Positions 5,276-62,385 of a stretch of DNA of 64,000 nt are shown here, piece by piece. Under the pieces are notes generated by a model. The model did no database searches. It was not told where the DNA came from and saw only the letters and a program-made list of their open reading frames with translations. Position numbers and translations under genes: made by a program. The stretch comes from an uncultured Bacteroidota bacterium (GTDB taxonomy: Bacteria > Bacteroidota > Rhodothermia > Balneolales > HLUCCA01), in the NCBI GenBank assembly GCA_947085565.1, contig CAMTWZ010000009.1, positions 22,040 through 86,039 on the forward strand. Direction: 5' to 3'. Within the stretch, counting starts at the first letter, position 1, and every line of letters starts with the position of its first letter.

Positions 5276-7710
5276 TAGTTGACTACGATATTGATGATGC
5301 GTTTGGGCACGAAAATCTCTTTGACGATAGTGCCGGTCTCCAGATAGCGTCGCGCGCCGGGCTCGGCCTTGGCCAGCTCCATCACGAAGGCTTTGTCTTC
5401 GGCTCTATCGGCCGGTACAGTGAGTTCGGCTCTGACCTTACCGTTGATTTGCACCGCATAGGTGAACGTGTCTGACACGAGGAACGACGCGTCCCAACTC
5501 GGCCATGCATGGTAGGCGAGTGTATCGGAATGGCCGAGGCGATGCCACAGTTCCTCCGCCATATGCGGGGCGAACGGACTCAGCAACAGCACGAAGGTCT
5601 CCATCATGCTGCGTGGACGCACATCCCACTTCATCGCCTCATTATTGAAAATCATGAGTTGGGAGATGGCGGTGTTGTACCGGCCGTTCTCGATATCCTC
5701 GGTCACTTTTTTGATGGTTTCATGAAGCACCTTGAGTTGATCGCGGGTAGGTTCGATATCCCTCAACTCATCCGCCAAACGGTCTTCGAATTCGTGATGG
5801 AATACGCGCCAGGTGCGTTTCAAGAAGCGGAATACGCCCTCCACCCCGTTCATGCTCCATGGCTTGACCTGCTCCAACGGACCCATGAACATCTCATACA
5901 AACGCAACGAATCGGCGCCGTACTGCTTCACCACATCGTCCGGATTGATGACGTTGCCGCGCGACTTGGACATCTTCTGATTGTCCTCACCAAGAATCAT
6001 CCCTTGGTTCACGAGCTTCTGGAAGGGCTCCTTGGTGCTCACCACGCCGATGTCGTACAGCACTTTGTGCCAAAAACGGGCATACAAGAGGTGAAGCACT
6101 GCGTGCTCGGCACCTCCGACATACATATCGACCGGCATCCAGAACTTCTCGCGGGCCGGGTCGACCGGACCCAGTTCGTAATCCGGGCTGATGTACCGCA
6201 GATAATACCAGCACGAGCCGGCCCATTGCGGCATCGTGTTCGTTTCGCGGAGCGCGGGTTTTCCTGTTTTCGGATCGGTCGTGTTCACCCAATCGGTGAT
6301 GACGGCCAAAGGCGAATCGCCGGTTCCGCTCGGCTCATATTTCTCTACCTCGGGTAACAGCAGAGGAAGCTCGGACTCATCCAAGGGCTGCACCACCCCG
6401 TCCACATGCAGTAGAGGAATGGGCTCGCCCCAGTAACGCTGGCGAGAGAACAGCCAATCGCGCAGCTTGTAATTGACGGTTCCGTTGCCCTTGCCTTGCT
6501 CTTCTAGCCAGGAAATCATCGCCGTCTTAGCCTCTTTCACACTCATTCCGTTCAGGAATCCGGAATTCACGGCCACTCCTTTTTCGGAATCGGTGAACGC
6601 TTCCTTCTGGACATCTCCGCCGGAGACGACTTCCACAATCGGAAGTCCGAATTGCTTGGCGAATTCCCAGTCGCGCACGTCGTGACCCGGAACCGACATG
6701 ATCGCGCCGGTTCCATAAGAAATCAGCACATAATCAGCGATCCAGACCGGGACTTCCTCCCCGTTCGCCGGATTGATCGCATAACCGCCAGTAAAAACAC
6801 CGGTTTTTTCTTTCACATCTCCGGTGCGATCCAGATCCGATTTGCGCGCGGCTTCATCGACATAGGCATCCACCGCGGCTTTCTGTGCCGGAGTGGTGAT
6901 GAGATTCACGAGCGGATGTTCCGGCGCCAGAACCATGTAGGTGGCACCGAACAGAGTATCTGGACGTGTGGAAAACACCGTGACCGACGCATCCACCCCT
7001 TTGAGCTGAAACACGATGTCGGCACCGATCGACTTCCCGATCCAATTTCGCTGCATCTCTTTGACGGATTCGGGCCAGTCCAATCCGTCCAAATCTTCCA
7101 ATAAGCGCTCTGCGAAAAGCGTAATACGCAGCATCCATTGGCGCATCGGGCGGCGGATCACCGGGAATCCGCCTACTTCCGACTTCCCGTCGATCACTTC
7201 CTCGTTGGCCAGAACGGTTCCCAATTCAGGGCACCAGTTCACCGCCACATGCGATTCGTACGCCAAACCTTGTTTGTAAAGCTGAAGGAAGATCCACTGA
7301 GTCCAGCGGAAATACGCCGGATCGGTGGTGTCGACTTCCCGATCCCAATCGTAACTGAAACCGAGCATCTGCAACTGCTCGCGGAAGGTCTTGATGTTGG
7401 CTTGCGTGGTCGCGGCCGGATGGGTTCCGGTTTTGACGGCATGCTGCTCGGCAGGAAGTCCGAATGCGTCCCACCCGATCGGATGCAACACGTTGAAACC
7501 CTTCATGCGCTTGTACCGGGCTACGATATCAGTCGCGGTGTAGCCTTCGGGGTGACCCACATGCAAACCCGATCCGCTCGGATACGGAAACATGTCCAAC
7601 ACGTAGAATTTAGGACGTGACGTGTCGGTGTCGTTGGTTTTGAAAATCTTGTTCGAAACCCAGAAGTTCTGCCACTTGGGCTCGATCTGGGACGGTTTGT
7701 AATCGCTCAT
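5275..7710 (-). CDS. leuS: leucyl-tRNA synthetase
   Basis: Class I motifs HVGHPEGY (HIGH) and KMSKSRGN (KMSKS), plus a CP1 editing domain. The track start at 7749 is a GTG. The ATG at 7710 ([14 protein letters not shown]) fits LeuRS N-termini. The stop overlaps the serS ATG by 1 nt. Confidence 0.95.
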
Positions 7711-52223: not shown

Positions 52224-54176
52224 TTACTTATAGCTCCGTTGGGTGAGACCGACTTCGGCGAAATCGAGGGCTTCCTTGTGCAAGGCTTCGGGTTTGTCGT
52301 CGCCTTTGAATTCCCACGCCGCCACGTAGGCGTATTTGTCGTCGTTGCGGAGGGCTTCGCCTTCCGGGGTTTGATACTCTTCGCGGAAATGTCCACCACA
52401 GGATTCCTCACGGTCGAGGGCGTCTTGCGCCATCAACTCGCCAAGCTCGAAGAAATCGGCGATACGGCCGGCATATTCCAGATATTTGTTGTAAGTGGAA
52501 GGCTCACCTGGCACAAACACATTGTTCCAGAAATCTTCTTTGAGCGTGCGGATCTGCTCAATCGCGCTTTTCAGTCCCTTTTCACTTCTGGCCATTCCCA
52601 CTTCATCCCACATGATCTTGCCAAGTGCGCGATGATAATCCAACACGGTCTTGTTTCCTTTGACCGACAACAGCTTGTTGATGCGGCTCACCGCTTCATG
52701 CTCGGCGGCTTTGAACGCTTCATGATTGGTATCGACTTTGGCAGGAGGGTTGTTCACCAGATAATCGCCCAAGGTGTAGGGGATGATGAAGTAACCGTCG
52801 GCCAAACCTTGCATCAACGCGCTTGCTCCGAGACGGTTCGCACCGTGATCGGAGAAATTGGCCTCGCCAAGCACAAACAGGCCCGGAACCGTGCTCATGA
52901 GATTATAATCGACCCAAAGTCCGCCCATGGTGTAATGCACCGCGGGATAGATCATCATCGGGGTCTGATACGGATTGTCGGCCGTGATTTTCTCGTACAT
53001 GTCGAACAGGTTGCCATACCGCTCACGGATCTTGGCTTCGCTGTCTCGCTTGATGGCATCACGGAAGTCCAGGTACACGGCCAATCCGGTAGGACCTACG
53101 CCCTGTCCCGCATCGCAAACCTGTTTCGCATTGCGCGAGGCCACATCGCGTGGCACTAAGTTTCCGAAGCTCGGATAGCGCTCTTCGAGAAAGTAGAAGC
53201 GTTCCGATTCTGGAATATCGTTCGCGGCGCGTTTGTCGCCTTTGACGCGCGGGACCCATACCCGTCCGTCGTTCCGAAGCGATTCCGACATCAACGTCAG
53301 TTTGGATTGATAATCGCCGGAAACCGGAATACAGGTCGGATGAATCTGTGTGAAACAGGGATTTGCGAAAAAGGCACCGCGTTTGTGCGCACGCCAGGCG
53401 GCGGTCACATTCGAGTTCTTGGCGTTCGTAGACAGATAGAACACGTTTCCGTATCCGCCGGTGGCCAGAAGCACAGCATCTGCGGCATGGCGTTCGATTT
53501 CGCCGGTAACCAGGTTACGAGCGATGATTCCTCGTGCGACGCCATCCACCACCACGAGATCGAGCATTTCATGGCGGGCGAGCATTTCGACTTTGCCCGC
53601 ATCCACCATTTTCATCATGGCGGAATACGCTCCCAAGAGCAACTGCTGACCGGTTTGTCCGCGGGCGTAGAAGGTTCTGGACAACTGAGCCCCGCCGAAA
53701 GAGCGGTTATCGAGCAATCCGCCGTATTCGCGGGCGAAAGGCACGCCTTGAGCCACGCATTGGTCGATGATCAGGTTGCTCACTTCAGCCAGACGGTACA
53801 CATTGGCTTCGCGTGCGCGGTAATCGCCACCTTTGATGGTGTCGTAAAACAAGCGGTACACGCTGTCGCCGTCGTTCTTATAGTTTTTAGCGGCGTTGAT
53901 TCCACCTTGCGCGGCGATCGAATGCGCGCGACGTGCGGAATCCTGGATGCACATCGCTTTCACATTATAACCGAGCTCTGCCAATGCCGCAGCCGCGGAA
54001 GCACCCGCCAAACCCGTACCCACCACGATGACGGTGAATTTGCGCTTGTTATTGGGGTTCACCAGATTGATGTGGTCTTTGTGAAACGACCACTTCTGTT
54101 GCACAGGTCCGGGAGGAACTTTGCTATTGAGCTTCGGAGAGGAGCCTTCGTTCGGAGTTGTTTTTGACGTTGCCAT
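52224..54176 (-). CDS. sdhA: succinate dehydrogenase/fumarate reductase flavoprotein subunit
   Basis: [22 protein letters not shown] (FAD histidine), HYTMGG, RLGASAL. Confidence 0.95.
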
Positions 54177-54182
54177 AATTCC

Positions 54183-54899
54183 TCAATAGACGATGTAAAT
54201 CCAGATGGGTAGGACGAAAAAGCCGAGAGCAATCGCCACGCCGATGATGCCCGCGACCGTGTACAGAACCGGCGCCATTTTCTTGTTCATAGCTCCGAGC
54301 GATTGCAAGGCGCTCCATACGCCATGGCGCAGGTGGAATGCCAGCATGAGCATGACACCGCTGTAAATGACCACTTTCAGAAGGTTGTCTTTGAAAATCT
54401 CAACCACCAACTTCGATACGTCGCGCATCTGTTTGCCGCCTTCAATCGTGGTATAATAAGCGACATCGGCCGTATCCCATCCGGGACCGAATTTCATGGT
54501 TTTCAAGTGCATGAACATGAACAGGAAGAGAATCGTGCCGCTGATGATCATGGTGCGGGAACTGAAGCTCTGGCGGCTTGGATTTCCGCGGCTTGCGGTA
54601 ACCTCATACGCTTCGGGACGCGCTTTGCGCTTACCCAGCCAGATCGCGACACCGATGTAGGCGTGGATCAGAAAGATGGCCGCCAGACCGAACTCGATGA
54701 TGTACAGCAGAAATCCCAGATCGTGCAGGAAAAGCGCATATCGGTTGAACACATTGTCTGGTACCGCCGGATCGATCACGAATAGGGTGAGATTGGCTGA
54801 CAGGTGGCCGATGAGAAACAGGACCAATGCGATGCCTGTGACTCCAGTTAATAGTTTGCGTCCAACCGAATTTTGGAACGCGGTCAATAGGGTAAGCAT
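54183..54899 (-). CDS. sdhC: succinate dehydrogenase cytochrome b subunit (b558 family)
   Basis: 238 aa, 5 TM helices with conserved His residues. Sits directly upstream of sdhA/sdhB. Confidence 0.85.
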   Translation of the reverse strand: MLTLLTAFQNSVGRKLLTGVTGIALVLFLIGHLSANLTLFVIDPAVPDNVFNRYALFLHDLGFLLYIIEFGLAAIFLIHAYIGVAIWLGKRKARPEAYEVTASRGNPSRQSFSSRTMIISGTILFLFMFMHLKTMKFGPGWDTADVAYYTTIEGGKQMRDVSKLVVEIFKDNLLKVVIYSGVMLMLAFHLRHGVWSALQSLGAMNKKMAPVLYTVAGIIGVAIALGFFVLPIWIYIVY

Positions 54900-54970
54900 G
54901 CTGGCAGGATGACCTATGGTTTGCGGTTTTTATTGTAAGGAATATAACGGTTTCAGACTCTTAAAAGAAC

Positions 54971-56128
54971 TCAAAGGAACATGGTTCCGTTCTCCAGACA
55001 GGCCGCCAGCGCACGAAATGAGGCTTTTTTGTCGGAATGGCGAAGCAGTCGTTCCGAAAGCGTTCCATGCTTCAAAATGACATTCATGGCCGCCTCCGAA
55101 TCGTTGTTTGGCAAGGCTCCTCCCTCTTTGTGACACGAAACCCAGAAATCGAGAACAGTGCCGAATGTCCCGTATTCAGGCAGGGTGTCTAAAGAGGCTT
55201 TTCCGCCATGGAGGATGGTGGTGGAGAGCAACTCCGCGAGCCGATCGGTGGAGGTCTCCCGTACGGTCTCAAACTGATCCATGAACCGATTCACAGCGCG
55301 GTCAATCATCATCAGAACGGCGATATCGGCCGCGGGACATTCCTGGATGTCGGTCACACGAATCTCGATGGCGTTCCGGTCGAACCGGGCGATGGCTCCG
55401 CGCGCGTTGAGCCATTCCTCCTGCAAGATTCCATCAGGATCCAGCGGAGCGATATCCTCATACATGGGCTTGAGAATGGTGTCGAGATACTCCTGTTCCG
55501 AAAACACGGGTTCGGGAATCACGTTTCCGGTGACGGATGGAATGCGCGCCGCGTTTGACCGATACACCGCAAGCCGACCATCCAACTCAGCAGCGACAAC
55601 ATTATCGCGAAATGGACTGGATGCGGCAATGGCAGGAATCAGGGGAAGAACCATCCGAATGGCGGCATGAAGCTGGGCGAATTCCTCATCTCCGTCGAAA
55701 GGCAGGTTCAGATGAGTGCTTTGCAGATTGGCCCACCCGTGTCCGCGGCAGTCGAAAATGCGGTCGAACGCGGCGTAAATCTCGTTATAACCGTGTGGCC
55801 ACAGCACCATTTCCTTGTAGGGATCCATCCAAGGATGCATCGCGCTGGGCATGAGCATGGCGTGATGCGGCTCTAAAAGCCGGTTGATGGTCCTTACGTG
55901 GCTCTGAAACACATCCGCCAATCCTGCGAGCGACCTCACAGGCTCGGTCACTTTCAGCTCGATCACATGGGCCACGAGTTCATTCACCCAAGTGATGTCA
56001 TCATGTTCCACTTCACCTTGAACGCCTAAGACGGACTCCGCGATGGGTTTCACATCCAAGCTCGCCCGGTCCACGATCATGTACTCGAGTTCGACACCGT
56101 ACACCGATCCGAGCTTGTGCGTTGCCAT
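54971..56128 (-). CDS. carboxylate-amine ligase, glutamate-cysteine ligase family 2 (GCS2/YbdK-like)
   Basis: YGVELEYMIVD at the N-terminus and a glutamine-synthetase-fold-like pattern. The start shares 1 nt with the upstream stop (TGATG). Confidence 0.7.
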   Translation of the reverse strand: MATHKLGSVYGVELEYMIVDRASLDVKPIAESVLGVQGEVEHDDITWVNELVAHVIELKVTEPVRSLAGLADVFQSHVRTINRLLEPHHAMLMPSAMHPWMDPYKEMVLWPHGYNEIYAAFDRIFDCRGHGWANLQSTHLNLPFDGDEEFAQLHAAIRMVLPLIPAIAASSPFRDNVVAAELDGRLAVYRSNAARIPSVTGNVIPEPVFSEQEYLDTILKPMYEDIAPLDPDGILQEEWLNARGAIARFDRNAIEIRVTDIQECPAADIAVLMMIDRAVNRFMDQFETVRETSTDRLAELLSTTILHGGKASLDTLPEYGTFGTVLDFWVSCHKEGGALPNNDSEAAMNVILKHGTLSERLLRHSDKKASFRALAACLENGTMFL

Positions 56129-57600
56129 CAGTAGGCGCTCCTTTCGCGCTTGCGCTCTTCGATGCGCTTGAGAAAGACCTGCATCACAGTCAGGTACAGA
56201 TTGTCTTTGAGCAGGGTGTCTTCCACGCCCGAATCGATATTCGGATTGTCATTGATTTCAACCACGTAGGCCTTATCGCCGATTTGTTTCATGTCCACGC
56301 CGTACAGACCATCGCCGATGAGGTTGGCCACCGCCATGGCTCCTTTCATGACCGAACGAGGAACCAGTTCCACAGGGATGGTTTCCTGTCCGCCGAAACT
56401 GCGTTTTCCTTTCTCATCGCGCTTGATGATCTGCCAATGGCGCCGCGCCATGTAGTATTTGCAGGCGAAGATCGGGCGGCGGTCGATGATGCCGATCCGC
56501 CAATCGAACTCTGTGGGCATGAATTGCTGGGCGATGATCAGATCCGACTTATCCAGCATTTTGGTGGCGAATTCCAGCAATTCCTCGGGTGTGGAGGCTT
56601 TAACCACGCCTTGGGAAAACGCGCTGTCTGGCTGCTTGAGAATGACCGGAAGTCCCAACATTGGCACCACTTTGTCCACATTGTCCTTATGGACGATCAG
56701 TGTTTCGGGATGCGGGATTTCATGGTGATGCAACAGCTCGGCCAGATAGACTTTGTTGGAGCATTTGAGGATGGAGTCGGGGTCGTCCATCACCACCAGG
56801 CCTTCGGCGGCGGCGCGTCGAGCAAAACGAAAGGTGTGATGGTTCACATTCGTGGTTTCGCGAATGAACAGGGCGTCGAACTCTGCCAATCTGGAATAAT
56901 CCTCTTTGGTGATCAGCTCCGCGCCGATTCCCAATGATTCCGCCGCTTTGATGAACTTCTGCAAGGCTTTGGGATCGGAGGGCGAATCCACTTCCTTCGG
57001 ATTGTGCAGGATGGCCATATCGAACCGTGGTACGAACGGACGAGGTGAGCGCGCTTTTTTTCCTGAGAAATAGGCTTTGGTCACCTCCAGCACGAAGGGT
57101 TTGTGGTCTTCGGGCAACTCGCTCGCGGCAATGGGACTCATCGACGTGAATTGCCATTTCTTGCCCGTGTTCTCGAAATTCGCGCGGATGAACGGTGCTT
57201 GGAACAATCCGAAAAGCTGCTGTGCCAACCTATCGTAGCGCTTGGCCAGATTCCGACCGAAATAGATGCTTAGCACGAATTCGTGCGCTTTGATATGTCC
57301 CAGACTTTCCTGGATGAGCTCATCCAGATCATCACTCACAAACCGGATGATGGTCTGCGATTTCATGTCTTGGATGGTGGCGACATTGGGGATGGGCCGG
57401 TGTCCGCGCGCGGCGGCCAACAGCGACACATAATACCCGTTCGCTTGGTACCGGTAACTACGGCACAGGTTGAACACCTTCACTTTCTCGAGTTCGGAAA
57501 AGGATGGATCGGTCAGGTAACTCCGCGCCGAGACGACTTGGATTCCAGGCACATCGAGCTGCCAGTCGTTCGGATTGTTTACAACTACGATATTGTTCAT
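56128..57600 (-). CDS. RimK-like ATP-grasp ligase with an N-terminal RLAN-type domain
   Basis: N-terminal roughly 190 aa (YRYQANGYYVSLLAAARGHRPIPNVATIQD). Then a RimK-type ATP-grasp (PVILKQPDSAFSQGV, IAQQFMPTEFDWRIGII, YGVDMKQIGDKAYVVEINDNPNID). Confidence 0.75.
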   Translation of the reverse strand: MNNIVVVNNPNDWQLDVPGIQVVSARSYLTDPSFSELEKVKVFNLCRSYRYQANGYYVSLLAAARGHRPIPNVATIQDMKSQTIIRFVSDDLDELIQESLGHIKAHEFVLSIYFGRNLAKRYDRLAQQLFGLFQAPFIRANFENTGKKWQFTSMSPIAASELPEDHKPFVLEVTKAYFSGKKARSPRPFVPRFDMAILHNPKEVDSPSDPKALQKFIKAAESLGIGAELITKEDYSRLAEFDALFIRETTNVNHHTFRFARRAAAEGLVVMDDPDSILKCSNKVYLAELLHHHEIPHPETLIVHKDNVDKVVPMLGLPVILKQPDSAFSQGVVKASTPEELLEFATKMLDKSDLIIAQQFMPTEFDWRIGIIDRRPIFACKYYMARRHWQIIKRDEKGKRSFGGQETIPVELVPRSVMKGAMAVANLIGDGLYGVDMKQIGDKAYVVEINDNPNIDSGVEDTLLKDNLYLTVMQVFLKRIEERKRERSAY

Positions 57601-58298
57601 GTGGGTTCTAAGACAAGCATGTTGGCATCATAAGTGAGGATTCCGAGCAAGATCGCATTGATCAAGCGGTCCATCCTCACGTGGTAATAGGATCCGGAAA
57701 AACCTGGGTTGTGTTGAAGAGGGTCTGCCACTCGAACGGTTTTTTCCGCCTCATCGTATCCTGACAGAACCACGAAATGTCCCGTGGCGAACCCGCGCAA
57801 GTCGTCATAATCGCTATTGGGACCATATTCCCGCTCACATTGGTACAAATAGGTGGCGCTGAGTCCGGTAAGTACAGGAGTCTCTTTCTTGAGCAGGGAT
57901 CTGATCAGTGTCGGATTGAGGTCTCTGAATTGGATCGTTCCGCCGAGATCCAGGAATTCCATGTAGGCTTGGGCCGCTTTCTGAAATTTCCGCCCGGTCT
58001 TGTGCTCGTTCTGCTGGCGAAGTTTCTCTTTGAGCTCGCGCGAATCCAACCCTGCCCATGTGGGGTCGAACACGTGCAGATTGTAGGTGAACAGTGTGGC
58101 GTCATATCCCCGTTTGAGCGCATGGATGGCAAGAAGTACGGCCAAGGTCCCTCCTTCTTCGAGGGTCTGCACTTCTTGGATCACCTGGTTCAGATCCAAG
58201 GTTTCGCCGAAATAGCTGTAAACGGCGTGAAGGCAGGTGGGTCCGCAGGTGGTGTCGTCGGGTTGGGGAAGAATTTGAAGATGAAGCGGACTTCGCAT
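57597..58298 (-). CDS. papain-fold cysteine peptidase, C39-like
   Basis: LPQPDDTTCGPTCLHAVYSYFG (catalytic Cys context) and TGHFVVLSGYD (His context). ATGA overlap with the ATP-grasp gene. Confidence 0.6.
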   Translation of the reverse strand: MRSPLHLQILPQPDDTTCGPTCLHAVYSYFGETLDLNQVIQEVQTLEEGGTLAVLLAIHALKRGYDATLFTYNLHVFDPTWAGLDSRELKEKLRQQNEHKTGRKFQKAAQAYMEFLDLGGTIQFRDLNPTLIRSLLKKETPVLTGLSATYLYQCEREYGPNSDYDDLRGFATGHFVVLSGYDEAEKTVRVADPLQHNPGFSGSYYHVRMDRLINAILLGILTYDANMLVLEPT

Positions 58299-58301
58299 CC
58301 C

Positions 58302-59048
58302 CTAATGTAGCGTCTTTTCAGCGAGTCTGTGAGGAAAAAGTAACCAGAGCCGCCCTTGCCGAAGGGCGATATCGACAACCGGTTCATCGAATTCATGAAC
58401 GGATACGGTTTTGAAAGCGCCATCCATAATGAAGACGGATTTCCCTGCGCTTACGGCCAGGCCGTCGGCACTTCCGGCCACTCGGCGGATGGTTTCCGGA
58501 AAGGTTCGAAAACCGATTTCCAGGCCGAATCGGTTCAGAATGAACAGGGTTTTCCCTTGTGCGATGAGCACATGGTCGCCGGATACGGCCACATCCGCCA
58601 CGCTTTCATTCCGAAACGAGGGCGGGGAGAACGCTGCATCGATTTCTCCATTGGGTCGGAATTTCCTGATCGCCCGCTGCTGGGTGTCCAAGGCGAATAG
58701 TTCGCGGTAACGGTTCAGCGCGATCCGGTCGAACCGATCGTTGCGGGAGTGGATTTCACTGACGAACTGAAGATGCCGGTCGAGCAGAACGATTCGCCGG
58801 GTTCCGGGATCGGCCACATACACGGTGAGTTCGTGGGTGGCGTCCAGGTCGGTGGGATCGTTGTAGGCATTGAATCGGGATCCGCGTCCGCCGCTGGTGC
58901 GGATACCGGCTTCGCCGAGGGCAAGCAAGGTGAACGAACCCGAATCCATCACAAAAGTTTCTCCGGATGCGGAAACCGATATGGAAACCGCGTTGTCGAA
59001 TCTGAGCGAATCGGTTGCGAGAAAATTAAGGACGAGAAGAAGCCACAC
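58302..59048 (-). CDS. hypothetical protein, NHL-repeat-like beta-propeller fragments
   Basis: 248 aa, GTG start. Blades resembling NHL repeats (TVYVADPGTRRIVLLD). The stop is 3 nt from the C39-like ATG. The start overlaps the purD 3' end by 23 nt. Confidence 0.4.
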   Translation of the reverse strand: MWLLLVLNFLATDSLRFDNAVSISVSASGETFVMDSGSFTLLALGEAGIRTSGGRGSRFNAYNDPTDLDATHELTVYVADPGTRRIVLLDRHLQFVSEIHSRNDRFDRIALNRYRELFALDTQQRAIRKFRPNGEIDAAFSPPSFRNESVADVAVSGDHVLIAQGKTLFILNRFGLEIGFRTFPETIRRVAGSADGLAVSAGKSVFIMDGAFKTVSVHEFDEPVVDIALRQGRLWLLFPHRLAEKTLH

Positions 59049-60327
59049 GGCGGAGTCCCTTCTGTCCGATGTCTATGCGGTAGGTGGCGCCTTCGAACTG
59101 GATCCGCTCCACCGACGCGTACGCCTTATCAATGGCTTCCTGCAGTGTCATGCCATGGCCGACCACGTTCAATACCCGGCCGCCATGGGTCACGATCTGT
59201 CCGTCGATTTCGGCCGTACCGCTATGGAAGACGGTCACATCCTCATCCACCAATCCCAATCCTTGGATGGGAAAACCCTTCATGTAAGCTCCTGGATACC
59301 CCTTCGACGCCATCACCACGGAGCAGAAATATCCGGGCTTGCTACTGAAGGAGGCGTATTCGAGTCGGCCGCTTACCGTCATGAGCATCATTTCGAGTAG
59401 GTCCTGTTCCAACGACGGAACGATGACCTGGCACTCCGGATCGCCGAAACGGCAATTGTATTCGACCACTTTCGGACCCTCCGAAGTCATCATCAAACCG
59501 GTGTACAGAACGCCTTTGTACGGAGTGGCTTCCATGGCCATCGCGTCGATCGTGGGTTGCACGATGGTGTTGAAGATATGCTCCAGAGCGGCTTGGTCGA
59601 GCAATGGCGCCGGGGCGTAAGCACCCATGCCACCGGTGTTCAAGCCGGTATCGTTATCGCCGATGCGCTTGTGATCTTGCGCATATCCGATGAGTTTGGC
59701 GGTTTGCCCATCCGAAAGGGCGAAAACCGAGACTTCCTCGCCTTGCATGAATTCTTCGACGACGAAGAAATCGGCGGCGGCACTCAGGTTCACGTCATTG
59801 AGGATGGTATCGAGCACATCGCTGGCTTCTTCGGCGCTGGAGCAGATGAACACGCCTTTTCCGGCGGCCAGGCCATCGGCTTTCAATACCACGGGAAACA
59901 CGTCCATATTGGAGATGTATTCGCGGATCTGCGAGACTTCATGCCGTTCGAAGACATGGTAAGCGGCGGTCGGAATCCCGTATTTCTGCATGATCGATTT
60001 GGAGTAGCTTTTGCTTCCCTCCAATCTGGCTGCGGCTTTCGACGGACCGAACACCTTGTGCCCATAATCTTCCAGATAATCGGTGAGACCATCGACGAGC
60101 GGTTTTTCAGGTCCGATCACAACGAAAGTGATGCCGTTGGCTTCGATGAATTCCAACACCGCTTCGAAATCATCCACATCCAGAGACACATTGGTTCCGA
60201 ACTGTGCGGTACCCGGATTGCCGGGAGCGATAAACAGTGACTCGAGCATTGGAGATTTCGCCAAGCCCCAGGCGAGAGCGTGTTCGCGGCCGCCACTTCC
60301 AATCAGGAGTACCTTATAGGTTTCCAT
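59026..60327 (-). CDS. purD: phosphoribosylamine-glycine ligase
   Basis: VLLIGSGGREHALAW, ATP-grasp core, EYNCRFGDPE. Confidence 0.95.
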   Translation of the reverse strand: METYKVLLIGSGGREHALAWGLAKSPMLESLFIAPGNPGTAQFGTNVSLDVDDFEAVLEFIEANGITFVVIGPEKPLVDGLTDYLEDYGHKVFGPSKAAARLEGSKSYSKSIMQKYGIPTAAYHVFERHEVSQIREYISNMDVFPVVLKADGLAAGKGVFICSSAEEASDVLDTILNDVNLSAAADFFVVEEFMQGEEVSVFALSDGQTAKLIGYAQDHKRIGDNDTGLNTGGMGAYAPAPLLDQAALEHIFNTIVQPTIDAMAMEATPYKGVLYTGLMMTSEGPKVVEYNCRFGDPECQVIVPSLEQDLLEMMLMTVSGRLEYASFSSKPGYFCSVVMASKGYPGAYMKGFPIQGLGLVDEDVTVFHSGTAEIDGQIVTHGGRVLNVVGHGMTLQEAIDKAYASVERIQFEGATYRIDIGQKGLRRVASSRP

Positions 60328-60328
60328 A

Positions 60329-61060
60329 TCAGCGGAGTTTGATTGCGGTTTGCACGACAGACATCAGCCCGTCGGCATTGAGACTCGCGCCCCCGATGAG
60401 TCCGCCGTCGACATCCGGCTGACTCAACAATTCACCCGCGTTATCGGGTTTCATGCTTCCTCCATACAGGATCTTGGTATCGGCGATGAGAAGCGAGCGG
60501 ATGAAAGCGTGCATTTCCTGAGCCTGCTGGGGCGATGCGGTTTCGCCGGTGCCGATGGCCCAAACCGGCTCATAGGCGATCACGACCTTCGCGACTTCGG
60601 CGGCACTGAGTCCGTCCAAAGCGGCCAGAGTCTGGGTTTTCACCACATCAAAATGGATTCCTTTTTTGCGCTCTTCGAGCACTTCTCCGACACAAAGAAC
60701 AGGTGTGATTCCAGATTCCAACGCTTTGCGCACTTTTTTGGCGACGATGGCATCCGTTTCACCGAAATACTGACGGCGTTCGGAATGTCCCACGATCACG
60801 TAAGTCACTCCCATCGCGGCGAGCATGGATCCGGAAATTTCGCCTGTGTACGCGCCATTGTTCTCGAAATGCAGATTCTGAGCGCCGATGGAGGCGTTAC
60901 CGGAACGCACCAGAGCCGACGGTAGCGAGACGAAGGGAACGCAGATGAGCGTTTCCACCTCGGGATGGCGCGGCGCGTTGAACGCTGCGAAAAAGGCTTC
61001 GGTCTCGGCGGGACCATTATTCATTTTCCAGTTGCCGGCGATCAAAAAAGAGCGTTTCAT
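60329..61060 (-). CDS. tpiA: triosephosphate isomerase
   Basis: IAGNWKMN, VGHSERR, AYEPVWAIGTG, LYGGS. Confidence 0.95.
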   Translation of the reverse strand: MKRSFLIAGNWKMNNGPAETEAFFAAFNAPRHPEVETLICVPFVSLPSALVRSGNASIGAQNLHFENNGAYTGEISGSMLAAMGVTYVIVGHSERRQYFGETDAIVAKKVRKALESGITPVLCVGEVLEERKKGIHFDVVKTQTLAALDGLSAAEVAKVVIAYEPVWAIGTGETASPQQAQEMHAFIRSLLIADTKILYGGSMKPDNAGELLSQPDVDGGLIGGASLNADGLMSVVQTAIKLR

Positions 61061-62385
61061 TACAGATTCGGGATGGTGAGAAGTGGGTTGAGGTCGGCTT
61101 CGAATTCAGCGGTGTCGTACACGAAATAACGGCCGATCACTAATCCGTCGGATCCGACCAGATAACGCATCGGAACCCGGTCCACGCGCAGCTGATCTCC
61201 GATCGCAGACCGGTTGAACGCGCCGAACGGGGTGAACGTCCACTGTTTTTTGCGTTCGATGAAGAAACCGTCGATGATTTCGGGATAGGCGTCGAGAGGT
61301 ACCGTGATGAATCGGATGCCTTTCGGCGCGGCTTTGGCATGAAGTCGGGCCAGAGCCGGATACGTGGCGACGTACGGACCACCCGCCAGCGTCACGAACT
61401 CAATCATATACGGCTTGCCCTTCAGGCTTTGCGATGTGATGGAATCGGTTTGGGAAGTGTAAATCGTGAAATCTGGAAGTCGTTTTCCGGGAATCAGATT
61501 CATCAACTCATATTCGAGGCTTTCGGCCCAGTTGTCGTATGCGGTGCCTTTGTGAGTTCGGCGGAACGCATTCACTTCGGCCAATGCCCGGGTTTCATCT
61601 CCCATCACCAACATCAGTTCGATGCGGCGCATATCCGCGGAACTTTTCAACTCCTTGTCTTTCACGGACGCTTTCAGAGCATCGACATAGGCCAATCCGG
61701 CTTCCAAACCGTCTTTTTGCAACGCCAATTCCGCACCTACGGTCAATTTGGTCGCGAAATCGGATTTTGAATTCCCCAATTCCGAAATCCGTGCACTGAG
61801 CTTTTCATTATCGACTCCGAACAACATTTCGATGCTGTTCATACTGCCCTGCTCGGCGGCATAGGTTCCGGGACTGGATTCACGCAGCGACCAATACAGA
61901 TCGCTCCATTGCAGAATGAGTGAACGGACGGAATCGGGTGTGACTACGCCCGAAGTCGCGATCCGCATCAGCCGGTCGTATTGGCGGTTTAAGCGAAGCA
62001 GCGTCTGCCAAGCGTTGTTTTCCCGGGATTCGGCTTGGAACGTCTGCGCAAGTCTGGGAATGGCTCCTGAGATGCGGATCGTATCGCCCGGCGCCAGAAT
62101 CACATCTCCCACATGCAGAATGCGGTTGTTGCGCGAGATGGTGAACGGATACGCACCGGGCTGCGATACAGTGATCACTCCACTGAAATAACCGTCGATA
62201 TCCGTTTCAGCCTTGAAGAGCGTGTCGCCCAACATGGTGATGTCCACAATGATTCCAGTGAGGTCGTTGCTGCCATCTACAGTGATCACACCCGACAGGA
62301 TCGTGGTTTTCGGAACCGGTTCCGTTTTTTGTGCGCAGGCCGCCGACAAGACCCAGAGTCCCGCCATCAACACCAATGCTCTCAT
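61060..62385 (-). CDS. TlpA/thioredoxin-fold protein lacking the CxxC motif, with an N-terminal carboxypeptidase-regulatory-like domain
   Basis: Signal peptide. GVITVDG...GYFSG beta-sandwich pattern. The C-terminal thioredoxin-like fold (GKPYMIEFVTLAGGPYVATYPAL) has LAGGPY where WCGPC is expected. Confidence 0.55.
   Translation of the reverse strand: MRALVLMAGLWVLSAACAQKTEPVPKTTILSGVITVDGSNDLTGIIVDITMLGDTLFKAETDIDGYFSGVITVSQPGAYPFTISRNNRILHVGDVILAPGDTIRISGAIPRLAQTFQAESRENNAWQTLLRLNRQYDRLMRIATSGVVTPDSVRSLILQWSDLYWSLRESSPGTYAAEQGSMNSIEMLFGVDNEKLSARISELGNSKSDFATKLTVGAELALQKDGLEAGLAYVDALKASVKDKELKSSADMRRIELMLVMGDETRALAEVNAFRRTHKGTAYDNWAESLEYELMNLIPGKRLPDFTIYTSQTDSITSQSLKGKPYMIEFVTLAGGPYVATYPALARLHAKAAPKGIRFITVPLDAYPEIIDGFFIERKKQWTFTPFGAFNRSAIGDQLRVDRVPMRYLVGSDGLVIGRYFVYDTAEFEADLNPLLTIPNL

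Follow-up and report, generated by a model that had tools for sequence, protein, structure and literature searches.

An uncharacterised predicted operon type joining a C39-like peptidase to RLAN-ATP-grasp and GCS2 ligases, and its three-gene form in a Balneolales bacterium

RimK, MptN, CofF, LysX/ArgX and RIMKLA/B ligate glutamate-type amines to carboxylates through an acyl-phosphate, and the GCS2/GCL enzymes activate the gamma-carboxylate of glutamate. Putative relatives of both groups are encoded side by side, together with a C39-like cysteine peptidase, in a stretch of 64,000 nucleotides from an uncultured Bacteroidota bacterium of the Balneolales (contig CAMTWZ010000009.1, positions 22,040 to 86,039 of the forward strand), the whole of which is called the window below. 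The three genes, here called the triad, lie on the minus strand and overlap each other. We report that they stay together across phyla as an operon-like unit. The locus is orthologous to a widespread predicted operon type, biochemically uncharacterised, in its triad form, i.e. without a gene for N-formylglutamate amidohydrolase (FGase). The genes and their junctions are the following.

57597-58298, minus strand: gene for the C39-like cysteine peptidase, 233 aa (open reading frame and Pfam)
56128-57600, minus strand: gene for the RLAN plus RimK-type ATP-grasp ligase, 490 aa (open reading frame and Pfam)
54971-56128, minus strand: gene for the GCS2 carboxylate-amine ligase, 385 aa (open reading frame and Pfam)
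57597-57600, minus strand: ATGA start/stop overlap between the peptidase and ATP-grasp ligase genes (sequence)
56126-56130, minus strand: TGATG stop/start overlap between the ATP-grasp ligase and GCS2 ligase genes (sequence)

As in the RimK family (RimK/S6, LysX/ArgX, MptN, CofF), the C-terminal half of the triad ATP-grasp ligase is RimK-type, with the Lys/Asp/Glu-x-Asn residues for ATP and Mg intact. Unlike RimK, it scores far below the rimK_fam cut-off, carries an extra RLAN module of ~190 aa, and has its translation coupled to that of a GCS2 ligase and a cysteine peptidase. Cyanophycin metabolism (CphA1, cyanophycinase and isoaspartyl dipeptidase) shares with the triad two ATP-dependent ligase activities, accompanying hydrolases and the lack of a template gene, and in CphA1 too an ATP-grasp backbone extender follows an N-terminal non-catalytic domain. 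It differs in that the second ligase of the triad has the GCS2 fold and not the Mur-ligase fold, that the triad enzymes are separate proteins, and that the hydrolases of the module are of the papain and FGase folds, not S51. The match to TIGR02068 (cyanophycin synthetase) is negligible (14.9 vs 850 bits), and Pfam found no Mur-ligase or S51 domain in the triad proteins. The glutathione/phytochelatin pathway uses the same classes of enzyme (a GCL-superfamily ligase, an ATP-grasp ligase and a papain-fold cysteine enzyme), none of them orthologous to the triad. With the C39 bacteriocin peptidases (ComA, PCAT1) and with 3ERV, the triad peptidase shares the Q/C/H/D set, the QxxDxxCGP motif and a papain-like fold. 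Unlike the classical C39 enzymes it is stand-alone, has an insertion of ~85 aa, and is accompanied by neither an ABC exporter nor a double-glycine precursor in the 80 loci described below. Judged by sequence, the locus is orthologous to none of RimK, YbdK/GshA, cyanophycin synthetase and the classical C39 transporters. Operons linking an ATP-grasp to a COOH-NH2 ligase were described as a class in a 2009 survey of amidoligase neighbourhoods by Iyer, Abhiman, Burroughs and Aravind (Mol Biosyst 5:1636), which PMC4431377 cites and summarises in terms of successive ligations. Those neighbourhoods follow the same logic, with two unrelated ATP-dependent amide ligases per operon, as a prediction only and with no defined product. 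Our literature search returned no publication on the triad gene set or on the combination of FGase with ATP-grasp; the initial annotation of the window had likewise known of no defined product for the three genes.

On the minus strand, the ATG of the ATP-grasp ligase gene overlaps the TGA of the peptidase gene in the ATGA (57600-57597), and in the TGATG (56130-56126) the last A of the ATP-grasp TGA is the first base of the GCS2 ATG. These overlaps lie exactly where the initial annotation had placed them, and both motifs that it quoted from the peptidase, PQPDDTTCGPTCL and GHFVVLSGYD, are present in the translation. Its domain calls, a peptidase and two different ATP-dependent ligase folds, agree with the Pfam hidden Markov models for all three proteins. 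The base composition of the triad is unremarkable against the rest of the window.

Loci were then collected by a scan via the peptidase, with one genome per species, which returned 214 loci, 80 of which were kept. They come from Balneolales, Marinilabiliales isolates (Natronoflexus, Alkalitalea), Thermodesulfobacteriota, Nitrospinota and Gammaproteobacteria, and further from Planctomycetota, Gemmatimonadota, Acidobacteriota, Tectomicrobia, KSB1, Hydrogenedentes, Myxococcota, Verrucomicrobiota and Spirochaetota. The initial annotation had staked its proposal on co-conservation of the three genes in other genomes, and this was clearly found: tblastn with the window proteins detected all three in line in 72 loci, and the order peptidase, RLAN-ATP-grasp, GCS2 was kept in all 72, which represent at least 13 phyla. 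Among the 80 loci the order recurs wherever the downstream flank is long enough, the exceptions being an orphan peptidase (L014), a rearranged locus with the ligases upstream of the peptidase (L070) and a triad with a 3.2-kb insertion (L037). In the 72 in-line loci a 4-nt overlap is the commonest junction and nearly all gaps are shorter than 60 nt; the ATP-grasp/GCS2 junction is an overlap of 1-10 nt in 42 of them. All three proteins are 45-60% identical across phyla, and their pairwise identities co-vary (Pearson 0.80-0.84). This recurrence in the same order across many phyla, with tight junctions, means that the arrangement is not due to chance. Public annotation of the three proteins is generic ('C39 family peptidase', 'RimK family protein', 'glutamate-cysteine ligase family protein').

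The peptidase of L014 (L014:6965-7735, 56% identity) is the only orphan at orthologue level among the 80 loci. It lies between a pyridoxal phosphate enzyme of Cys/Met metabolism and a TetR-like regulator, which is the next gene, and no ligases were found within 7 kb upstream or 1.2 kb downstream of it.

Clustering of the open reading frames of the 80 loci yielded one further widely conserved family, of ~240 aa, encoded directly 3' of GCS2. It belongs to the family of FGase (PF05013), a metallo-amidohydrolase that cleaves an N-acyl-glutamate amide; the profile of the family matches the Atu2144 structure 2ODF at 2e-37. Among the 62 informative loci, i.e. those with a complete GCS2 gene and at least 900 nt of downstream sequence, 39 have FGase directly downstream of GCS2, as in these examples.

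L017:10407-11108: FGase gene downstream of GCS2
L058:10399-11082: FGase gene downstream of GCS2
L083:2528-3232: FGase gene downstream of GCS2

In the RefSeq (PGAP) annotation of Legionella adelaidensis the run reads 'RimK family protein', 'glutamate-cysteine ligase family protein', 'N-formylglutamate amidohydrolase', and in L091, whose peptidase is only 41% identical to that of the window, the tetrad has stayed complete. No FGase homologue was found anywhere in the 64-kb window, where sdhC comes after GCS2, and FGase is also absent from the closest relative of the window, L001. The window therefore carries the minority triad form, the common form being a tetrad with FGase. Two metagenomic proteins join parts of the module in a single open reading frame: P0324 is a peptidase fragment joined to RLAN, and P0348 a peptidase N-terminal fragment joined to an FGase domain. 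They may be true fusions or frameshift/assembly artefacts, and lend weak support to the idea of a module. Divergently upstream of the intact tetrad of L091 lies a glutaredoxin gene (L091:3681-3923), a single instance that is not conserved elsewhere.

The peptidase matches Pfam Peptidase_C39_2 (3.7e-12, 47.5 bits, cut-off 24) and, over its N-terminal part only, Peptidase_C39 (3.6e-7, 30.5 bits, cut-off 22). Its predicted catalytic residues are invariant in alignments of 81 and 54 homologues.

58263-58265, minus strand: peptidase Q12 (alignment)
58245-58247, minus strand: peptidase C18 (alignment)
57777-57779, minus strand: peptidase H174 (alignment)
57723-57725, minus strand: peptidase D192 (alignment)

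In profile comparison the QxxDxxCGP motif aligns with that of the ComA peptidase domain, and the closest PDB sequences are the ComA and PCAT1 leader peptidases. The AlphaFold2 (AF2) model is confident (pLDDT 91, pTM 0.89). Searched against the PDB with Foldseek, it retrieved the pseudomurein endo-isopeptidase PeiR, the stand-alone C39-like 3ERV and cathepsins, then the C39 domains of PCAT1, LahT and ComA, and also Alr0975, a primitive phytochelatin synthase, including its glutathione acyl-enzyme. The modelled fold is thus papain-like. Relative to the transporter C39 domains, the insertion of the triad peptidase lies between the Cys helix and the His strand. The 233-aa protein has no transporter domain, and no obvious signal peptide or membrane segment is seen in the translations of any of the three triad proteins; the peptidase is a stand-alone cytoplasmic protein. 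At the 90% cluster level it has more than 7,800 homologues, most of them 55-62% identical to the window protein despite distant phyla, and clustering at 50% reduces them to 148 representatives with E <= 1e-30. The family is compact and strongly constrained.

More distant paralogues of the peptidase (32-38% identity) occur in other gene contexts. In L089:273-7971 and in L090, one of these (32% identity) has a 4-nt overlap with an Asn-synthase-like gene, in an operon that also encodes an unannotated 591-aa protein, an M28-like peptidase, an unassigned 346-aa protein and an M20 deacylase. This is another cluster that pairs amide formation with a peptidase. The pair in L089 was considered as the trio for the osmolyte NAGGN and rejected, as it is not that trio.

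The 490-aa ligase has its RLAN domain N-terminal to a RimK-like ATP-grasp.

57088-57528, minus strand: RLAN domain, residues 25-171 of the ligase (Pfam RLAN, PF14401, 1.4e-50, 171 bits, cut-off 25)
56233-56937, minus strand: RimK-type ATP-grasp module, residues 222-456 of the ligase (Pfam RimK, NCBIfam)

Pfam RimK itself covers residues 281-456 (6.9e-8, 32.8 bits, cut-off 21). The NCBIfam model rimK_fam is matched over positions 22-257 of 276, with 55 bits vs a cut-off of 143.4, and MptN and LysX give 49 bits each vs 350 and 276. PDB matches, to RimK and LysX, are weak. Residues K283, K322, D436, E448 and N450 are invariant in 73 sequences; an Asp...Glu-x-Asn spacing is typical of the Mg sites of ATP-grasp enzymes.

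The Pfam RLAN family reportedly stems from the 2009 amidoligase survey of Iyer and colleagues. The invariant residues of RLAN are mostly aromatic or polar, with the motif NLCRSYRYQxxGYYVSLLAxARG, and the orthologue alignment has no invariant D, E or K in residues 1-190 of the ligase. The AF2 model of this region (57031-57600, minus strand) has a pLDDT of 91, and its top 50 PDB matches by Foldseek are all ATP-grasp-fold proteins, with query-normalised TM of 0.5-0.58; ArgX, LysX, RimK, PruB, MdnB/C, PsnB, synapsin, Ddl, biotin carboxylase and ITPK1 are among the fold neighbours. Because the model is ATP-grasp-like and invariant acidic or lysine residues are missing, RLAN is probably a degenerate, non-catalytic ATP-grasp-like module, which would probably bind the acceptor or mediate assembly, a role read from fold similarity alone. 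An origin of RLAN as an internal duplication of the ligase's own ATP-grasp was rejected (hhalign 1% probability), the likeness being structural only.

The GCS2 ligase matches Pfam GCS2 (PF04107) at 5e-22 (79 bits, cut-off 21), and residues E13, E15, H54, E57, H98, R243 and R257, among others, are invariant, so that the metal-binding acidic residues are conserved. Its predicted fold class is glutamate-cysteine-ligase-like, i.e. the glutamine-synthetase fold. The profile reaches plant GCL and YbdK structures weakly, these PDB matches being profile-only, with E of 1e-3 or weaker, and the best score against the NCBIfam YbdK/GshA/GCL models is 47.9 bits vs cut-offs of 176-427. Being far below the curated NCBIfam cut-offs, the ligases are superfamily members, not orthologues of any characterised enzyme. 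By their domains, both belong to families that activate a carboxylate with ATP. Residue conservation was taken from alignments of 66-81 orthologues per protein. The initial annotation had named missing catalytic residues as evidence that would count against it; the key residues of the peptidase, the ATP-grasp and the GCS2 ligase all proved invariant.

Around the triad, the same strand carries upstream gatB, a thioredoxin-like protein, tpiA, purD and an open reading frame of 248 aa, and downstream, after a 71-nt gap, sdhC, sdhA, sdhB and recQ. Between gatB and tpiA, positions 61060-62385 (minus strand) encode a protein of 441 aa with a lipoprotein-like N-terminus and a C-terminal thioredoxin-like/AhpC-TSA domain. 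The 248-aa frame is directly adjacent to the peptidase gene.

58302-59048, minus strand: ORF4, 248 aa, GTG start (215 aa from the later start chosen by gene callers)

Its stop is separated by 3 nt from the ATG of the peptidase gene, and at the other side its start lies within the end of purD. The product has a hydrophobic N-terminus and no Pfam match, and matches NHL-type six-bladed beta-propellers (Pizza, PknD; E ~4e-6). It adjoins the triad only in the two closest relatives, a metagenome-assembled genome (MAG) of Balneolales and a MAG labelled Chitinophagales, with 55-56% identity. We considered it as a fourth triad member and rejected it: a beta-propeller of NHL type shared with two relatives is lineage-specific context.

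Clustering of the 80 loci and the window revealed no conserved open reading frame of 15-90 aa outside the triad genes, the conserved clusters being frame shadows, and neighbour clustering of the 80 loci revealed no conserved ABC transporter, immunity gene or regulator. After FGase, the next neighbour clusters (histidine kinase, ABC ATPase, CBS protein) occur in at most 8 loci. PADLOC gave no defence-system match for any of four proteins. These absences, together with that of a signal peptide, argue against a cassette for a ribosomally synthesised and post-translationally modified peptide (RiPP) or bacteriocin, and favour a cytoplasmic pathway whose substrate is made, or has its gene, elsewhere. 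An Rfam scan of 54000-61500 found no cis-regulatory RNA or riboswitch. A sub-threshold flpD RNA match at 55639-55715 (plus strand), antisense in GCS2, had 23.4 bits vs a gathering threshold of 40 (E 0.084), and is most likely due to chance. Sigma-70 promoter and intrinsic terminator counts around the triad were not above shuffled expectation, and therefore no operon boundary can be called.

The reading that we favour, tentatively and well short of conviction, is that the triad acts in the cytoplasm as one module, which makes and trims a non-ribosomal, amide-linked product centred on glutamate, on a substrate that the operon does not encode. The RimK-type ATP-grasp would form an acyl-phosphate on an acceptor carboxylate and add the alpha-amine of L-glutamate, or of a close analogue, while the RLAN module would hold the acceptor or the growing product. 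The GCS2 ligase would then activate the gamma-carboxylate of that glutamate and couple a second amine. One round of the two ligations would yield a glutamyl peptide with alpha and gamma linkages, and repeated rounds a branched oligomer. The C39-like peptidase would cut the product or its precursor at an amide or isopeptide bond, for priming, length control or turnover, and FGase, in most other genomes but not in the window, would remove an N-acyl-glutamate-type bond. Candidate products are small alpha/gamma-glutamyl peptides, branched oligomers or polymers like cyanophycin, and tails on a protein or cofactor. In support, the fold neighbours of the peptidase include the isopeptidase PeiR and the glutathione-cleaving Alr0975, and the papain-fold relatives matched here cleave isopeptide or gamma-glutamyl bonds. 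The initial annotation had suggested peptide synthesis or tailing with processing by the peptidase; this is compatible with all observations, and the step from the genes to such chemistry is one that we infer.

Several points weigh against this proposal. The use of glutamate as the amino acid, the sequence of the two ligations and the part played by the peptidase are all conjectural. With NCBIfam scores far below every cut-off, substrate specificity cannot be transferred from characterised relatives, and the structural matches of the peptidase are at fold level only (TM 0.45-0.55 by Foldseek). In addition, Pseudomonas, Azospirillum and Aeromonas have RLAN-RimK homologues (34-46% identity) that stand alone, with no peptidase, GCS2 or FGase gene within 6 kb of them. 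This means that the ATP-grasp enzyme can function without the other triad members, and that the triad is one specialised use of the RLAN-RimK enzyme.

L081, Pseudomonas aeruginosa pZYPA1927, 5902-7491: stand-alone RLAN-RimK gene
L082, Azospirillum brasilense Sp7 p1: stand-alone RLAN-RimK gene
L084, Aeromonas caviae: stand-alone RLAN-RimK gene

The P. aeruginosa gene lies near ggt and genes of a glutamate/aspartate ABC transporter, and is convergent with a gene for a pyridoxal phosphate aminotransferase. A literature search on PA1345, an unverified guess, made from the neighbouring genes, for the locus tag of the stand-alone homologue in strain PAO1, gave nothing relevant. The ngg gene is plasmid-borne in Sinorhizobium; a link to the NAGGN osmolyte enzyme Ngg was dropped, as tblastn of the ligase against plasmids and chromids gave 11 records, none from Sinorhizobium.

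Among other explanations, the triad could tail or tag a protein encoded elsewhere, which we regard as possible but doubtful. The peptidase would expose a C-terminus, the RimK-like ligase would add glutamates, and the GCS2 ligase would couple a gamma-carboxylate to an amine. RimK adds glutamates to ribosomal protein S6, and PafA couples the gamma-carboxylate of Pup to an amine. Membership of the RimK family and the LysX/ArgX/RimK-like fold neighbours, all acting on protein C-termini, fit this explanation, as does the C39 catalytic architecture, nearest in sequence to the leader-cleaving ComA/PCAT1 domains. The unusually high identity across phyla (55-60%) would suit a universal protein substrate, and the substrate of RimK is itself, as is generally known, encoded away from rimK. 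On the other hand, the 80 loci hold no conserved small open reading frame or candidate tag gene, no target protein is known, and the frequent FGase partner is of a small-molecule amidohydrolase type. The invariant charged residues D14, D15, R156, E157, D165 and D166, predicted to surround the nucleophile, also contrast with the hydrophobic leader-binding grooves of C39 enzymes. The same C39 architecture could suggest RiPP or bacteriocin maturation, with removal of a double-glycine leader by the peptidase and modification of the core peptide by the ligases; the C39/C39_2 matches and the nearness of the ComA and PCAT1 leader peptidases point that way. Yet no precursor-like small open reading frame is conserved in or around the 80 loci, nor is an ABC transporter or immunity gene. 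As a stand-alone cytoplasmic protein the peptidase does not fit either, identities of 55-60% across phyla are atypical for RiPP enzymes, and the triad of the window is flanked by housekeeping genes (purD, tpiA, sdhCAB), so that this explanation is disfavoured as highly improbable.

Two further explanations turn to small molecules. In a pathway for low-molecular-weight peptides similar to glutathione or phytochelatin, the GCS2 ligase would make a gamma-glutamyl dipeptide, the ATP-grasp would add a C-terminal residue as glutathione synthetase does, and the papain-fold enzyme would be a gamma-glutamyl transpeptidase or hydrolase, as is phytochelatin synthase. The fold classes are indeed those of GshA, GshB and phytochelatin synthase; the ATP-grasp has a weak NCBIfam glutathione synthetase match (6e-11) and the JGI name 'glutathione synthase/RimK-type', the peptidase model matches the Alr0975 glutathione acyl-enzyme structures, and one locus (L091) has the divergent glutaredoxin gene. 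However, the GshA and GshB models all score far below cut-off, the Alr0975 match is weak (TM ~0.45, root-mean-square deviation >9 Å), the peptidase has no match to the Pfam Phytochelatin family, and no thiol- or redox-related neighbour is conserved across loci, which makes this pathway quite unlikely. That the enzymes remodel the glutamyl tail of some cofactor or metabolite seems very unlikely. MptN and CofF add alpha-Glu to methanopterin and F420, and cysteine-type gamma-glutamyl hydrolases remove folate tails; the ATP-grasp ligase has two of its best NCBIfam matches in MptN and CofF (3e-13 and 9e-4), and a set of ligases and hydrolases would suit a cycle of addition and removal. Against this, the scores are again far below the NCBIfam cut-offs, no cofactor biosynthesis genes are conserved nearby, and the hosts (Balneolales, Desulfobulbia, Planctomycetota, Myxococcota, Legionella and others) match no known specialised cofactor with a Glu tail.

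A more far-reaching proposal is that the module, present in more than 12 phyla, makes a template-independent glutamate polymer or oligomer similar to cyanophycin or, equivalently, a new modification of protein tails. We consider this unlikely. The pseudo-ATP-grasp RLAN would hold an alpha-linked Glu backbone for the RimK-like enzyme to lengthen, the GCS2 ligase would decorate the gamma-carboxylates with a second amine, and the cysteine peptidase, with FGase where present, would depolymerise the product. If true, bacteria would have a storage or protective biopolymer of a new class.

Whichever product is made, glutamyl peptide, polymer or tail, the window adds one more orthologue to a family that, taken as a whole, poses a well-defined and testable question. 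Several carriers are in culture (Natronoflexus pectinivorans DSM 24179, Alkalitalea saponilacus DSM 24412 and Legionella adelaidensis), and the question is therefore directly open to experiment. That two chemically complementary ligases are permanently tied to one or two amidases and lack a template gene is a strong hint at a metabolite, polymer or protein modification still to be discovered.

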